Below, piece by piece: positions 2,602-63,231 of a stretch of DNA of 64,000 nucleotides. The DNA comes from a virus. The position numbers were made by a program, and so were the translations under genes. Position 1 is the first letter of the stretch, and each line of letters starts with the position of its first letter. The DNA lies in IMG/VR virus record IMGVR_UViG_3300031251_000002, positions 102,451 to 166,450 of that record; one strand, given 5' to 3'. The notes beneath the pieces are model-generated. The model was not told the origin of the DNA and searched no databases. It worked only from the letters and a program-made list of their open reading frames with translations.

Positions 2602-3893
2602 TGGCTCTCACACCGACTGATTACGCTCCTAACCCAAACGTTCCGTTCTTCAGCTTCAATGTTGGAGGTACGGACTTTGCGGATGAGGATCGCCCGCAGC
2701 ACCTGATGAGGTTCCAGATCACCATGAACACCAACACCATGGGGATGTGGACAGCCGTGTTTCTGGACCCAGAGTACACGACTATCGAGAAGACGCTGCT
2801 CGATAACTTCGACAAACCCATCACTATTCAGTGGGGTTGGCAGCATCCTAGCTCCCTCCGCTCGCCACAATTCAAGGTTTGGATCTCTGATTTCCAGCCA
2901 CGCTTTGTGATGGGTGGATCTGAGGTAACGATCAGCGGGTTTACGTTTGAGTACGCGAAGGGGGCAACACAGGACTCTCGCGTGTACCCGGACACCGTGA
3001 CCTACGGAAGCCACAAGGACTCGATGACGATCTCCGATATCGTCAACGACATCTGCACCCGGAATGACTGGAAGGCCGACATCCTAGGAACGAAGCCGAT
3101 TCCGGCTTTCACCGCGCTAGACTCGACGGACCTTCTTGGGGCCAAGTTTGTCCAGAACGGTTCGGATTTTGACTTCATCCAGTCGGTTCTCGCTCCCGCT
3201 GCTGTCTCGGAGCAAGATCACGGGGACTACTACACCTTCTTTGATCCGTACACCAGCACGTTGTCCTTCAAACCACGCACCAAGACCGACCCGGTTCAGA
3301 CTCTGATCTTCATTCAGGACAAGATGAATGAGATTACTAACCTTCAGCCAGACATTCTGATTGGTCTGTGGGTTGGACTAGTGGCCGCAAAGACGACCGC
3401 TCACGGACAGGCCCCAGAGAAGTCTGGTGATCTGCCGTGCGGGGTGTTCGACCTTCCCCCAAACACGCAAGCCGACACAGCAACCCAGTATGACGGAAGC
3501 AAGACCGGTAGTTGTCCGGAGGACATGCAGAACAAGCTCAAGGATCCATACTCTTGCGCGGCTGAGGTGGGCTACGCCCCGGCGGCGTCCAAAGAGATGC
3601 TGGAGAACCGGCAGAAGGCGGTTTGGAATGCCGGGGTGCAGTGCGCTGGTACGCAGGTTCAGGTAACCATCGTTGGCCATCCCGGAACGGACACGATTAA
3701 GTATCTGCCGATGCAGACCGTGGATCTCAGCGTGACCTCACCGCCACCCGATAAGCTGCCGTCTTACCTGAACGGCAACTACATGATCGTTGGAGTAACG
3801 CATCTGATTGATCAGCATGGCTACAAAACACAGTTGACTCTTACTAAGAACGCTTTCGATACAGTCGGCAACCTAGAGGTTACGAACGGCTAA
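2601..3893 (+). CDS. Baseplate hub protein (late control D / gp27-like)
   Basis: Lies between the LysM and spike genes; C-terminal NGNYMIVGVTHLIDQHGYKTQLTLTK; Q-x-x-SDFDFI motif. Confidence 0.75.
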   Translation: MALTPTDYAPNPNVPFFSFNVGGTDFADEDRPQHLMRFQITMNTNTMGMWTAVFLDPEYTTIEKTLLDNFDKPITIQWGWQHPSSLRSPQFKVWISDFQPRFVMGGSEVTISGFTFEYAKGATQDSRVYPDTVTYGSHKDSMTISDIVNDICTRNDWKADILGTKPIPAFTALDSTDLLGAKFVQNGSDFDFIQSVLAPAAVSEQDHGDYYTFFDPYTSTLSFKPRTKTDPVQTLIFIQDKMNEITNLQPDILIGLWVGLVAAKTTAHGQAPEKSGDLPCGVFDLPPNTQADTATQYDGSKTGSCPEDMQNKLKDPYSCAAEVGYAPAASKEMLENRQKAVWNAGVQCAGTQVQVTIVGHPGTDTIKYLPMQTVDLSVTSPPPDKLPSYLNGNYMIVGVTHLIDQHGYKTQLTLTKNAFDTVGNLEVTNG

Positions 3894-56673: not shown

Positions 56674-57717
56674 GTCGCCTTCTCTACTACTCGGCGGCAC
56701 TGGTCGCCGTCTGGCTCATCACCAAACGCGCAGTGTGCGCCTTCGCCCTGAAGGATGATTTTCAGGAGGGCTACTGCTCTCGCTGCGAGACATTCTCTGT
56801 CGAGACCGTTTGCCCGAACTGCCGAAAGGAAAAATGACGAAATTCGCAGTCGGTCAGCGGTGGCGGTTGAAGCCGGAATGGGTGGCAGAGCGCGAGACGC
56901 AGGGACGTAAGGAAACGACCTTCGATTTCGTCATTCTCGGGCCTCCCGGAATGGAGTGGAACAATCCGAAGACCAACAAGACCTGTCGGCTGGAGGTTCC
57001 GGGGCACACTGAAAAGTGCGGCCCCATCTGTAGCCATGGGATCGTTCAGGATTACTCCCATGCCCATCTGAAGAAGTACGCCTATCTTGTGGAGGAGAAG
57101 TGAAGAAAAAGCCGGAACCGATTAAGCTTGAGATCACCCCCCGTGAGTTTTTCCAGCACCTTAACCGTAGCCATGAGACGGCGCAGGAGGTCTTCAAACT
57201 CCTTGGGCTGGAGATCCCGGAGAGTGCCAAGAAAGACATGGAGCGGCTCGCTGAGTCACTCAAGTCACTCAAGGAGAAGAAGTGAAAAAGAAGGAAGTCC
57301 CGAAGGGGATGACTTGCGAGTGCGGTGAGTACACCAAGTACGACATGTACGTGTACGCGCATTGGACGGTGGAGCTTGTCTTTACCTGCCCGAAGTGCAA
57401 GGCCAAGTATGGCCTTCTGGAAGGCGTGGCCGAACCGAAAGGGAGAAAATGAAAAAGTTCGTTCAAGCGGAATGCTCGTCCTGCAACGCAACTGGCCTCT
57501 ACTCTGGAATGTGCGAGGCAGAGGGCACGGCGGTTGTTTGCCTCGGCTGCAACGGGACGGGTTGCGAGACTGTCAGTTTCACCCCCTTCACCAAACGCCG
57601 GGGACGGCGAGACATCAAGACGGTCTACCGGTCTGGCGGACGGTTCATCATGACCGGCACCGGCCCGGTTGGTTCCAGCATCACGTACTCCGAATTCACG
57701 AAAGGAAAAATGCCTTC

Positions 57718-58893
57718 ATGAAGAAGCTGCTGACTCTGGCTCTCCTGTTCTCGGTTGTGTCTTGCGCTCAGGCACAAAGCAACGGCGGATTCCCGCCCCC
57801 GGTCACCACGACGCGGAGCGCGAGCTATTACCTGTACCTGCCGACTGCGGCGGGGGCGGCTGGCCCGGTCTCTCCGGAGGAAATGCTGGCCAACGAGCAG
57901 ATCGACTTCCCCAACATGGCGGCTTACGGATTCAATACCGTCTATCTGGTGGAGTTCCGGTCCAAGTTCGACCCGCTTCTCGATAACCAGTACAACCGCG
58001 AGGGCATCGCCAATCTCCGCATGGAGCTAGAGGCTGCTCGGCAGAACGGGCTTCGGGTTTTCCTTGGTCTGAACTTCGGGAGCGGCTACCAGATCGGCAT
58101 CGACTCCACGCCCGAAGCACTCCTTGCACGTAACGCCAAGTTCCAGTCTTGGCTCCAGTTCGTCCAGTACCTACTGATGAACATTGATGACTACCGGGAC
58201 ATGGTTTACCCCATCGTGTTTGAAGAGGGACAGGCGGACGCGACCTACAACCTGATTACGAATGCGGACGCTGCTGCACGGGCCTTTCAACAGACGCTTG
58301 GGAATCTCCCGGCTCTTCTTCCTGCTGCCCTGCGGGCGAAGTGGACGTTCGGCTGGTACGGGGCGACAACTGCCCTGTACTCGCACACGCCCGCTCAGGT
58401 CGGCTTTGACTGGGTTGGTGAGGGTGCGTACTTCTTCGATCCGACGATCACGCTTTCATGGCTCGCGGCAACCGATAAGGGGTTGACTGACGCTCAGATC
58501 AGCGCGAAGCTTGAGGACATGTTCGGCAAGGTCGGAGCGCTCTATCCCGGTATGCCCATCGTGTTCACTGAGGGTGGTTACTACACCTGCTCTTCTGAGA
58601 CCTTCAATCGTCAGGGCGAGGTCTATGCCCTGCTGGCGGAGTTCGCCATCTCTCGGGGCTACGGGTTGAATCTCTGGGGGTATCGTTCGCTCCTGACGCC
58701 TGAGCAGGAGTGCGCGGAGCGCGGTGGCAAGGGTGGACACTCGATGGGGAACGCTGATGGCTCCCCGCGACCCGCCATGCTGGCCGTCTCTGCGGCGATT
58801 ACCGGCCATCCGACAGAGCAGATGATGTTCATTGCGCCACTTCCCGGCGGTCGGCCTGAGCCGAGAAAGGTTGAGAGGCATGGCAGAGACTAA
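57718..58893 (+). CDS. Secreted glycoside hydrolase-like TIM-barrel protein
   Basis: The true start is ATG 57718 (signal peptide MKKLLTLALLFSVVSCAQA); MAAYGFNTVYL, ARQNGLRVFL, PIVFTEGG. Confidence 0.65.
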   Translation: MKKLLTLALLFSVVSCAQAQSNGGFPPPVTTTRSASYYLYLPTAAGAAGPVSPEEMLANEQIDFPNMAAYGFNTVYLVEFRSKFDPLLDNQYNREGIANLRMELEAARQNGLRVFLGLNFGSGYQIGIDSTPEALLARNAKFQSWLQFVQYLLMNIDDYRDMVYPIVFEEGQADATYNLITNADAAARAFQQTLGNLPALLPAALRAKWTFGWYGATTALYSHTPAQVGFDWVGEGAYFFDPTITLSWLAATDKGLTDAQISAKLEDMFGKVGALYPGMPIVFTEGGYYTCSSETFNRQGEVYALLAEFAISRGYGLNLWGYRSLLTPEQECAERGGKGGHSMGNADGSPRPAMLAVSAAITGHPTEQMMFIAPLPGGRPEPRKVERHGRD

Positions 58894-61293: not shown

Positions 61294-61944
61294 TGAAACG
61301 ACCAGCAAGGCTCTACAAGGGCCTAAAGACAACGGCTGACCTATCGACCAAGCGAACCATTATCCCGGTCGCTCTGCCGATTCTGGAGTGGATAGAGGCC
61401 AACCATGATCGCCTTGGCGTTTGCAAGGCGAGGCTGTTTAATGATCTAGTCGCCAGTGCGATCAAGAGTAACGACATTCGATTTAAGGGGCTGGAATGAG
61501 CAAGGTTAGCAAGCTGGGTGGGGACGCAGAGAACCAGATCCATGGGGATGAATGCATTGACGATTGCGACGGCTGTCCCTGCTGGTGTCATCCCGGCAAG
61601 AAGAAGCTGAAGTTGAATCCAACGGCCTATCTGGAGCTTCTGACCGAGGCCGAGAAGTACGCTCAGGCAATCGACCATGAGTACCAGACCCCGGAAATGA
61701 GCCGCTTCCTGTCCGCAGTCAAGAACGCAAGGGGGCTTCTCGATGGATAACGTTACCAAGTTCAAACTGCCCCCGAGACCGAGGCCGTATCTGGGTAACC
61801 CGATTCTTCAGACCCCGTGCGACCTGTGCGGCGCGGATCGGTATGCCGAGCCGGTCTGGGACACCGAGTTGGGATGCGTCGTGGCGATGACTCTTCTCGA
61901 TCATCCCTGCATCAAAAAAGTTGATTCGTTGAAAAAATAGGGTC

Positions 61945-61978
61945 TTGACATCGAGAACGCCCTGAAAGAAGATACTTA
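61945..61978 (+). promoter_or_regulatory. Promoter of the tRNA locus
   Basis: TTGACA-N17-GAAGAT, overlapping GCC-N9-GATACTTA (also seen at 16030 and 22114); either reading puts the start at or within about 3 nt of ATG 61983. Confidence 0.7.
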
Positions 61979-61982
61979 CATC

Positions 61983-62096
61983 ATGTTGACGCGCTGGTAT
62001 CTCTCCGCAAGCCCCAATAGCTTTTCAAAAAAGCATGGGGTCGAACTGTGCCCAGCGACTATGCTTAGGCAGCAGATCGAGGGTACGGATATCTAG
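61983..62096 (+). CDS. Attenuator leader peptide, 37 aa: MLTRWYLSASPNSFSKKHGVELCPATMLRQQIEGTDI
   Basis: Translated by hand; no SD (leaderless); encodes all 20 amino acids with 32 distinct codons; its stop overlaps the antiterminator 5' arm. Confidence 0.75.
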   Translation: MLTRWYLSASPNSFSKKHGVELCPATMLRQQIEGTDI

Positions 62097-62154
62097 GGCT
62101 TTGGGGTTTCAGAAGTAGGATCCACCAAAGCCCGCCTAGAAAGCGGGCTTTTTT
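62096..62154 (+). terminator. Mutually exclusive antiterminator and terminator (attenuator)
   Basis: GGGCTTTGG (62096-62104) pairs with CCAAAGCCC (62125-62133). Alternatively AAAGCCCGC (62127-62135) pairs with GCGGGCTTT (62143-62151), with a T6 run at 62149-62154. Confidence 0.85.
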
Positions 62155-62170
62155 GTTGGTCGGTCCGGTT

Positions 62171-62183
62171 TGATCGTTGAAAA
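62171..62183 (+). promoter_or_regulatory. boxA-like antitermination element
   Basis: TGATCGTTGAAAA resembles rrn boxA (TG[A/C/T]TCTTT[G/A]A[A/C]AA); lies between the attenuator and the first tRNA. Confidence 0.6.
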
Positions 62184-62225
62184 TTTAGGTGCCCCCAACG
62201 AAGTGGGGGCGCAGCATTGCTCAGC

Positions 62226-62299
62226 AGGAGCGTGGTGTAATAGCAGCACGACGGATTCCAAACCCGTCAGCGAGGGGGCAGTACCTTCCGCTCCTGCCA
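62226..62299 (+). tRNA. tRNA-Trp (CCA)
   Basis: Acceptor AGGAGCG/CGCTCCT + GCCA; anticodon loop TTCCAAA; atypical T-loop GGCAGTA. Confidence 0.85.
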
Positions 62300-62302
62300 A
62301 TT

Positions 62303-62390
62303 GGATAGGTGGCGAAATGGTAGCCGCGCTGGTTTGCTAAACCGGTGAGCCTCCTTGGCTCTGTGGGTTCAAGTCCCTCCCTATCCTCCA
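62303..62390 (+). tRNA. tRNA-Ser (GCT)
   Basis: GGATAGG/CCTATCC + TCCA; loop TTGCTAA; long variable arm; TTCAAGT. Confidence 0.92.
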
Positions 62391-62391
62391 T

Positions 62392-62467
62392 GGACTGCTA
62401 GCTTTGAAGGTCAAAGCGCCCACCTGAAGAGCGGGAGAACGTCGTTCAATTCGACGGCAGTCCACCA
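62392..62467 (+). tRNA. tRNA-Phe (GAA)
   Basis: GGACTGC/GCAGTCC + ACCA; loop CTGAAGA; TTCAATT. Confidence 0.9.
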
Positions 62468-62478
62468 TGAAAGTTTTT

Positions 62479-62551
62479 AGTAGGGAGAATGAGTATTCCA
62501 GTTGGTCTCATAAGCCAACCTCCGTGGGTGCGACTCCCACCCCTGCTACCA
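62479..62551 (+). tRNA. tRNA with CAT anticodon (Met or Ile2), short D-loop
   Basis: AGTAGGG/CCCTGCT + ACCA; loop CTCATAA; D-arm GAAT-GAGT-ATTC; T-loop TGCGACT. Confidence 0.8.
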
Positions 62552-62552
62552 T

Positions 62553-62626
62553 GCCTTCGTAGCCAAGTAGTTAGGCACCGGTCTGCAAAACCGGTTACGT
62601 TGGTGCAATTCCAACCGAAGGCTCCA
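62553..62626 (+). tRNA. tRNA-Cys (GCA)
   Basis: GCCTTCG/CGAAGGC + TCCA (U73); loop CTGCAAA. Confidence 0.9.
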
Positions 62627-62639
62627 TTGAAATCGGTCT

Positions 62640-62706
62640 GGGGGAAGAGACGTTCGACTCGTCAAGAGGGGCTTGCTCCTCCTTAGTGTAACGGCAGCAC
62701 TCCCCC
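62640..62706 (+). ncRNA. Circularly permuted tRNA mimic (YrlA / Y-RNA-like module)
   Basis: Order is GGGGG, T-arm (GACG-TTCGACT-CGTC), loop-closed acceptor-like stem, TA, D-arm (GTGT-AACGGCA-GCAC), CCCCC. Confidence 0.75.
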
Positions 62707-62806
62707 GTGCAAATGACAGCCGTAAGGCGCGGGTAAAACGTAGGCGTCACGACACGCCAACCCTTCAAAGAAGGGGCCGTCATTTGGTAATTTCCTCTAA
62801 ATCAAT

Positions 62807-62881
62807 CCGGGTGTGGGTCAGTGGCTGATCGCCTGTTTCGGGGACAGGATTAGGGAGGTTCAATTCCTCTCACCCGGACCA
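62807..62881 (+). tRNA. tRNA-Pro (CGG)
   Basis: CCGGGTG/CACCCGG + ACCA; loop TTCGGGG; TTCAATT. Confidence 0.9.
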
Positions 62882-62977
62882 AAGTTTCCCGAAGAATTCC
62901 GAGAACTGTTTGGTGGTAGCTTGTCAAGGAGCCGGGGGGTATATGAAAACCCACGGTGAAAGTAGAAACCACAAACC

Positions 62978-63067
62978 GGGCAAGTCGGATAGTAGCGATT
63001 CCAGCAGACTGTAAATCTGCCCTGTTTACAGCTAACACCGAAGGTGCAATTCCTTCCTTGCCCACCA
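62978..63067 (+). tRNA. tRNA-Tyr (GTA)
   Basis: GGGCAAG/CTTGCCC + ACCA; loop CTGTAAA; long variable arm; T-loop TGCAATT. Confidence 0.9.
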
Positions 63068-63069
63068 TC

Positions 63070-63078
63070 TGCTATAAT
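63070..63078 (+). promoter_or_regulatory. Extended -10 promoter inside the tRNA array
   Basis: TGCTATAAT, a perfect TGn-TATAAT. Confidence 0.5.
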
Positions 63079-63154
63079 TTTTGAATGCCGCATACAGTCG
63101 AGACTCATACCCGGACACGGGCCGAGTTTCGGGCACGAACCGGGAAACGTTAAT

Positions 63155-63231
63155 CCGCAGGTGAGGCAATTGGCAGACCTTCCAAACTCAAAATTTGGAG
63201 CTTGCGAGTTCAAATCTCGCCCTGCGGACCA
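63155..63231 (+). tRNA. tRNA-Leu (CAA), lacking the long variable arm
   Basis: CCGCAGG/CCTGCGG + ACCA; loop CTCAAAA; variable region of only 5 nt (AGCTT). Confidence 0.88.

Follow-up and report, generated by a model that had tools for sequence, protein, structure and literature searches.

The 64-kb window analysed here is the 3' terminal part of a 166,450-nt IMG/VR phage record, and near its end it carries a short open reading frame (ORF), two competing RNA hairpins and an array of transfer RNA (tRNA) genes. We propose that the element at 61983-62157 is a ribosome-mediated transcription attenuator which heads a tRNA operon and ties tRNA transcription to decoding speed, and we give this reading a probability of about 0.6. 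The phage probably makes its tRNAs when decoding is slow. The element and the genes behind it consist of the following parts (coordinates are those of the window unless stated otherwise).

61983..62096, plus strand: leader ORF of 37 codons followed by TAG, with all 20 amino acids, 32 distinct codons and no Shine-Dalgarno (SD) sequence, probably leaderless
62096..62133, plus strand: antiterminator hairpin (5' arm 62096-62106, 3' arm 62122-62133; -21.0 kcal/mol)
62127..62157, plus strand: intrinsic terminator (9-bp stem with 6 G-C pairs, 7-nt loop, TTTTTT)
62226..63231, plus strand: first eight tRNA genes of the putatively gated region (Trp CCA, Ser GCT, Phe GAA, CAT (Met or Ile2), Cys GCA, Pro CGG, Tyr GTA, Leu CAA)

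When the ORF was recounted, the figures given in a preliminary description of this DNA were reproduced: it runs from ATG 61983 to TAG 62094-62096, with 37 sense codons, 20 amino acids and 32 distinct codons, and 25 of the first 26 codons are distinct. Such diversity is rare in the genome. Among 122,600 stop-free 37-codon windows from all six frames, 62 (0.05%), lying at 13 loci, contain all 20 amino acids. None of the 3,909 37-codon windows of long ORFs does so, and among 184 short ATG ORFs the leader ORF is the only one. Under an independent and identically distributed (iid) model with the nearly uniform composition of the leader ORF itself, which is the fairest null for non-coding DNA, the frequency is 0.3%.

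The tRNA genes behind the leader extend beyond the window. The end of the record is joined to its start by a Logan contig of 100% identity (L008), with 126 nt repeated, and the genome is therefore circular or terminally redundant. In the whole genome 27 tRNA genes were called by ARAGORN, including six of the eight in the window. Rfam added Trp(CCA) and one CAT tRNA in the window, and a third tRNA missed by ARAGORN at L008 16730-16801 (genome about 574-645; 35 bits), which shows a cloverleaf, the anticodon loop CUUGCAA of Ala(UGC) and an encoded CCA end. The total is at least 30 genes with 29 anticodons for all 20 amino acids, Ala coming from the Rfam-only tRNA. With the exception of one tRNA-Val, the genes lie on the plus strand in a single region that runs from window position 62226 across the record end to genome position about 6201. 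Thus, the leader is the 5' border of the entire region and not only of the 8 visible genes. The eight tRNAs named in the preliminary description were all recovered, but the set that would be gated is larger, as it continues over the record end to at least 30 genes. Terminators are found at the end of the tRNA region (genome 1632-1652 and 6211-6228), and the remaining tRNA blocks of the genome have no leader or terminator of their own and directly follow protein genes. A consensus scan detected no promoter in the interval from the leader terminator to tRNA-Trp.

The leader codons were then compared with this tRNA set using simple wobble rules. Twenty-six of the 29 phage tRNA species are able to read a leader codon. 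Windows of the genome are covered by a mean of 16.7 +/- 2.5 species, with 26 or more in 3 of 40,907 windows, and a coverage of 26 was reached in 3 of 10,984 open shuffles (P about 3e-4). The codon diversity pointed out in the preliminary description is thus an outlier against both the genome windows and the iid null, and it matches the phage's own tRNA set. Since every amino acid and codons for nearly all of these tRNA species are present, the time that a ribosome takes to cross the ORF would report on nearly the entire tRNA pool.

The two hairpins start where the ORF ends. The G of the stop codon (62096) opens GGGCTTTGG (62096-62104), which pairs with CCAAAGCCC (62125-62133), and the terminator AAAGCCCGC/GCGGGCTTT lies at 62127-62151 and is followed by TTTTTTGTT; both structures had been described before and both were confirmed. 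The antiterminator helix consists of 11 pairs and an inner stem, and bases 62127-62133 are common to the antiterminator and terminator stems. Its energy compares with -15.5 kcal/mol for the terminator region. When minimum free energy structures were calculated for the 64-nt segment, the full leader and growing transcripts, the antiterminator was kept and the terminator was reduced to a 4-bp remnant. Forcing the terminator to fold costs +3.4 kcal/mol in an 80-nt context, which was matched by 0.5% of 400 shuffles of the upstream sequence, and a perfect 9-nt complement was found in 0.28% of 5,000 shuffles. Among 14 strong terminator candidates of the genome, only the one in the leader and one weak 6-bp candidate are pre-empted. 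Because the antiterminator outcompetes the terminator on naked RNA, termination needs 62096-62106 to be blocked.

This competition bears on one alternative, which contains no switch. In that case 61941-62157 would belong to the upstream operon as its 3' end and terminator, or would give rise to a separate transcript of about 175 nt, either a small RNA or the mRNA of a 37-aa protein whose gene has a promoter and a terminator to itself, and the tRNAs would be expressed via leaky readthrough or from an unrecognised phage-specific promoter. The terminator is indeed the strongest on the plus strand for about 10 kb and is located 3' of an operon ending at 61940. In T4-type phages, small stable RNAs without an assigned function are encoded between tRNA genes, which fits a transcript of this kind. 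Phage-specific promoters would be missed by a sigma-70 consensus scan. However, a plain operon terminator would not be built with a stronger upstream hairpin that pre-empts it, and the 187-nt gap between the upstream stop codon and the terminator is long for a tightly packed genome. In addition, the 37-aa product has no PHROG family match, and when the genome and all fetched loci were searched with the leader by blastn, no paralogue was obtained. We consider an arrangement without a switch quite unlikely.

In the case of an attenuator, the block would be supplied by a ribosome. When the bases that a ribosome would cover while UAG occupies the A site (62082-62108) were masked in the thermodynamic model, the full 9-bp terminator was restored. 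With the footprint masked at codon 10, 30 or 33 the antiterminator stays, and at codon 35 an intermediate fold is obtained. The attenuator geometry put forward in the preliminary description is reproduced by this folding, in which the nine terminator pairs would form only with the stop-codon ribosome masked. Its caveat that the last few codons, including the only Asp, would not be sensed also holds, with the antiterminator intact for stalls at codon 33 or earlier. The placement of the ORF is uncommon as well, since only 2.8% of shuffles contained an ORF that begins with ATG, spans 35 codons or more and stops -12 to +6 nt from the hairpin foot.

The proposed mechanism would proceed as follows. 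Transcription would begin about 3 nt 5' of the ATG, and a ribosome would load on the leaderless mRNA and trail the polymerase. If decoding is fast, the ribosome at UAG would cover 62097-62108 (the antiterminator 5' arm), AAAGCCCGC/GCGGGCTTT would fold and transcription would stop at 62152-62157. Without a ribosome, or with one held up anywhere from codon 2 to about codon 33, the hairpin 62096-62133 would form first and sequester the 5' arm of the terminator, and the polymerase would continue into the tRNA genes. The outcome would be a negative feedback in which slow decoding, the presumed physiological signal, leads to the production of phage tRNAs.

Codon usage points to translation of the ORF. 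Its codon-usage log-odds of 0.067 corresponds to the 22nd percentile of real genes and exceeds that of 95% of open off-frame pieces. The G+C content at third codon positions (GC3) is 0.65 compared with 0.64 in genes, and the leader ORF has about 52% G+C overall. The gene-like codon usage and GC3, together with an ATG at the predicted transcript start, are signs that the ORF may well be translated. The following elements are found upstream.

61932..61937, plus strand: A6 tract, read from the sequence, at about -48 to -43 and upstream of the -35
61945..61950, plus strand: -35 hexamer TTGACA (6/6 consensus)
61968..61973, plus strand: -10 candidate GAAGAT at 17-nt spacing (3/6 consensus, with A-11 and T-7 kept)

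The promoter that the preliminary description placed before the ORF was upheld in part: the -35 hexamer is perfect, but GAAGAT, with 3/6, falls below the threshold of the consensus scan and no promoter was listed. An alternative -10 (GATACT, 61971-61976) would have a spacer of 20 nt, and six other promoters of the phage show TTGACA/G, 17 nt and then a TAnnnT hexamer. The A6 tract overlaps the final codons of the upstream 65-aa gene and may be UP-element-like, as at stable-RNA promoters. Judged by the hexamers, the transcript is predicted to start at about 61980, 3 nt before the ATG. The mRNA would therefore be leaderless, which would explain the absent SD. A possible second leaderless gene at genome 50520 was rejected, as its start codon lies within coding sequence and is coupled to the preceding gene by an ATGA overlap.

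Several observations weigh against an attenuator of this kind. The -10 hexamer is weak (3/6), the leader ORF has no SD although about half of the phage's genes have one, it was not called by the gene caller behind L008, and no second leaderless gene was found in the genome. Under the simple wobble rules, the leader codons TCC, CCC, TCA, AAA and CCA have no phage tRNA reader, and three phage tRNAs have no leader codon. There are no codon runs in the leader and amino acids occur 1 to 4 times each, and shortage of a single tRNA should therefore have less effect than it has on trp/his leaders; the response of leaders to a scarce tRNA is a question treated in PMC1183508. The statistics are post hoc, as the descriptor was picked after the ORF had been seen, in a scan of very many windows. 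In addition, there is no clear 1:2 anti-antiterminator, and the two hairpins inside the ORF do not sequester 62096-62106.

62011..62041, plus strand: hairpin inside the ORF, from folding (possible pause or region-1-like element)
62046..62088, plus strand: second hairpin inside the ORF, from folding

The ORF part alone has a folding z of -1.65, which is not significant. According to the folding model, an untranslated transcript would form the antiterminator and would read through by default. The upstream operon has a promoter-like site at L008 11510, and the switch may govern only transcripts of the proximal promoter, as readthrough from L008 11510 could escape it. Finally, the only other copy of the leader that was read (in L008) is 100% identical, and no DNA of a diverged relative was found among the searches made.

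Some of these points favour a second alternative, in which the conditional terminator is set by an RNA-binding protein of phage or host, a small RNA or folding kinetics, and the ORF is an untranslated accident of a leader with balanced composition. The competition between terminator and antiterminator is significant irrespective of the ORF, and the ORF lacks an SD, follows a weak -10 and was missed by the gene caller. Moreover, the 0.3% of random balanced open frames that hold 20 amino acids is not vanishingly rare in a large scan. On the other hand, the ORF occupies the leader precisely, beginning at the predicted transcript start and ending at the hairpin foot (2.8% in shuffles), its codon usage and GC3 are gene-like, and it covers 26 of the 29 phage tRNAs. 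When 61900-62230 was searched against Rfam with E-values up to 10, no riboswitch, T-box or protein-binding leader family was found. In two other phages, described below, the leaders spell the amino acids that their arrays serve, and this is explained only if the ORF is translated. We therefore regard control by a factor other than the ribosome as unlikely.

The Rfam family Trp_leader (RF00513) scored 23.9 bits against a gathering threshold of 41 (19.9 bits on the minus strand). Homology to the trp leader was rejected, as the score is sub-threshold and the alignment covers the terminator only. The terminator stem and loop (62127-62151) are close to the Trp_leader consensus terminator, and this likeness alone yields the matches on both strands. 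A decayed tRNA or T-box in 61983-62096 was also rejected because no Rfam match was obtained. The boxA-like element of the preliminary description was not recovered: there is no match to TGCTCTTTAACAA with up to 3 mismatches in 62150-62226, and the best local candidate has at least 4/13 mismatches to a consensus that may not apply to the host.

The same design, with leaders that spell the amino acids of the tRNAs behind them, was observed in two unrelated phages. The first is locus L073 (IMG/VR contig 3300037193_000509), which was reached through an RNA-ligase homologue and contains a minus-strand Ser-Cys-Ser-Tyr-Leu-Leu tRNA array. The second is Caulobacter phage phiCbK (JX100813), in which annotated terminators are found directly 5' of tRNA blocks.

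L073:12167-12099, minus strand: leader ORF of 22 codons, ending 61 nt upstream of the array
JX100813 51341-51439: phiCbK leader ORF of 32 codons, containing QFVRQIQVVRNI and starting 7 nt after the -10

The L073 ORF contains SLYSLLSLCYS, 11 consecutive residues that all belong to the four amino acids of the array. Its end, CCAGGAGG, is complementary to the 5' arm of a terminator that then follows. In the fetched loci, one run of this length is met in roughly every 370 kb of six-frame sequence, and the chance of one in a 130-nt leader is about 4e-4. In phiCbK, the Phe-Val-Ile-Ile-Val-Gln-Gln block is preceded by TTGACA, 17 nt, TAGGGT, 7 nt and ATG. Among 11,926 12-residue windows in the phiCbK locus, QFVRQIQVVRNI is the sole one with at least 9 residues from the amino-acid set of the block, and the ORF also holds GGCGGGCC, an 8-nt copy of the 3' arm of the terminator. 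A further phiCbK gene product, gp083 (45 aa, annotated), consists of 69% Ser/Leu/Pro/Lys/Ala and is encoded before a Pro-Lys-Leu-Ala-Ser block. In the studied leader, a set of all 20 amino acids is matched by tRNAs for all 20, but such a match cannot discriminate in the way that it does in phiCbK.

Some further stretches were seen in the phiCbK locus (L267). At 2950-3140 and 3600-3684 there are unannotated tRNA-shaped stretches with CCA ends and, read by eye, the anticodons GGT, CGT (Thr) and GTG (His), none of which was called by ARAGORN or Rfam. An unannotated tRNA-Ala at 3684-3754 is an ARAGORN call. The amino acids of these stretches and of the tRNA-Ala fill the remainder of the gp083 leader.

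At 2640-2809, locus L055 (IMG/VR 3300025030_000038, 485 kb) shows TTGACA, 17 nt and TATACT followed by a 36-codon ORF. The second half of the ORF is Arg/Gly-rich and lies directly 5' of an Arg-Arg-Arg-Gly-Gly block; no terminator was found by a simple scan. In the two of these leaders whose promoter is evident, the ORF starts 7 nt (phiCbK) and 14 nt (L055) after the -10, and the distance is likewise short in the studied leader. The design is absent from a family of gut phages (RNA-ligase loci) in which a conserved 44-aa ORF precedes Gln-Met arrays but bears no relation to their amino acids. In L021 and L027, as well as in the Ser blocks of L055, small tRNA clusters directly follow genes without a leader. 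Thus, the design is not universal.

Relatives of the leader itself were searched for in several ways. The DNA polymerase of the phage is at most 28% identical to that of any cultured phage, and the phage is T4-like in its parts without a close cultured relative. The exact terminator pattern found no relative in IMG/VR, and the neighbouring 84-aa, 65-aa and 522-aa proteins compared with the same database led to no relative of the leader. When blastn was run against phages, only short tRNA-Met matches in Bacillus phages were obtained. The neighbouring small genes have distant homologues at most, and for the 65-aa upstream gene none was found in a set of 5.8 billion proteins. Through homologues of the 84-aa protein, non-syntenic phages were reached and also a single syntenic ENA contig of 4,712 nt (ERZ1426817), which shows 63% identity in a 172-aa protein, shares the gene order and has no genes at 2728-3653, 3' of its last small gene. 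A JGI scan with the 84-aa alignment found nothing, and one with a Trp-Ser-Phe anticodon-loop pattern gave 120 chance matches and no relative. None of 52 loci of the 172-aa family contained a syntenic tRNA array.

Protein genes are interspersed among the tRNAs. They comprise small genes, some of the HNH type, and a gene of an RNA-ligase family (PF17720 RLIG1, L008 19384-19956). At genome 2600-6200 (L008 18281-21176 and beyond), several tRNA blocks lie directly 3' of small Cys-rich genes resembling HNH-type endonucleases, and a DUF7574 gene is present alongside the PF17720 gene. This content suggests that the tRNA region is mobile and repair-associated.

The ligase gene is also relevant to a narrower explanation, in which the attenuator is a dedicated inducible counter-defence that senses tRNA cleavage by anticodon nucleases (PrrC, PARIS AriB, retron PtuAB and the like) and expresses nuclease-resistant tRNAs. 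An attenuator would respond to any loss of decodable tRNA, and the PF17720 gene in the region is a hint of RNA repair. It is documented that infection blocked by defences against tRNAs can be rescued by phage tRNAs, with no regulatory precedent there (PMC10264068, PMC11464382, PMC11555353). However, nuclease attack cannot be separated in the sequence from codon-usage mismatch, amino-acid starvation or high late-gene demand, and given the default readthrough of untranslated transcripts the tRNAs would probably not be silent before an attack. The link to anticodon nucleases is purely inferential, and plain supply-and-demand feedback explains the same anatomy. A dedicated counter-defence is quite unlikely. 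It is also unlikely that the leader was selected as a "pan-codon timer" for tRNA-targeting immunity, in which near-maximal codon diversity would let one passing ribosome probe almost all of the tRNA pool and any cleaved or depleted tRNA species would induce the full phage tRNA set. That claim includes leader-peptide attenuation of tRNA operons as a widespread phage principle, and the two taken jointly are doubtful.

A few other features were observed around the leader and in the first tRNA block.

62191..62210, plus strand: G+C-rich hairpin of 7 bp with no T run, read from the sequence and ending 15 nt before tRNA-Trp

This hairpin possibly has a role in processing or insulation. Three spacers of the first tRNA block (62627-62806, 62882-62977 and 63068-63154; 87 to 180 nt) contain no convincing ORF and no Rfam match with E up to 1; additional tRNAs of non-canonical form, ribozymes or elements for RNA processing may be located there. 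Upstream of the leader, the C-terminal half of an 84-aa Cys-rich protein (61496-61750) recurs in small proteins of other phages, one of which (L010) is encoded close to RtcB and RNA-ligase genes. A 522-aa protein (57325-58893) has no Pfam or PHROG family, and its homologues (46-61% identical) are located on bacterial-looking contigs beside ferritin, chorismate mutase and GGDEF genes. The phage may have acquired the gene from its host, in which case it would be a hint to the host. A scan of a collection of genome contigs for the host found nothing.

For fifty years there has been debate on what phages gain from tRNA genes. The proposals are that they compensate for codon usage, replace host tRNAs that have been degraded, or allow anticodon nucleases to be evaded. 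If the attenuator is real, the phage would measure decoding speed and supply tRNAs on demand, and the debate would become an experimental one. Leader-peptide attenuation, the textbook control of amino-acid operons, would be extended to the tRNA genes themselves. A leader with all amino acids would offer a small, naturally evolved sensor for the translation capacity of the whole cell, usable as a reporter, and the presence of the design in the cultured phage phiCbK makes the principle testable in a tractable host. Full-text literature searches found no leader-peptide control of phage tRNA genes, in agreement with the preliminary description, which knew of no such system.

The closest known systems are the amino-acid operon attenuators of E. 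coli/Salmonella (trpL, hisL, leuL and pheL, and the multivalent thrL and ilvGMEDA), which share with the phage leader a promoter-proximal short ORF, a terminator and an overlapping antiterminator. As in these, the stop codon is just 5' of the antiterminator arm, and a ribosome at the stop would lead to termination and a stalled one to readthrough. The distance from the stop codon to the terminator end is about 61 nt here, which we take to be similar to that in trp. Unlike them, the phage leader would control tRNA genes instead of biosynthetic enzymes, has no regulatory codon run and no clear 1:2 hairpin, and is probably leaderless.

T-box riboswitches also choose between terminator and antiterminator by tRNA status, but they bind uncharged tRNA without translation and control synthetase and amino-acid genes. 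In the case of toiL (E. coli topAI-yjhQ), a short upstream ORF, stalls at various codons are sensed because the downstream RNA is reshaped according to where the ribosome stands, and general slowing is thereby reported (PMC12121999). The bmrB leader peptide (B. subtilis bmrCD) combines a short ORF with an intrinsic terminator and answers translation inhibitors and rare codons (PMC4191407). However, antibiotics are the signal for both, the controlled genes are those of a toxin-antitoxin pair or an efflux pump, the action of toiL depends on ribosome-binding-site occlusion and Rho, and neither is described as sampling all amino acids or controlling tRNA genes.

The leaders of phiCbK and L073 resemble the studied one in having an ORF at or near the predicted transcript start (with an evident promoter in phiCbK), a terminator, a tRNA block and, within the ORF or at its end, a copy of the terminator 3' arm as antiterminator. 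They differ in that 4 to 7 clustered amino acids serve blocks of 6 to 12 tRNAs, whereas here a single leader with 20 amino acids heads a region with tRNAs for 20, and its antiterminator arm begins at the stop codon and not within the ORF.

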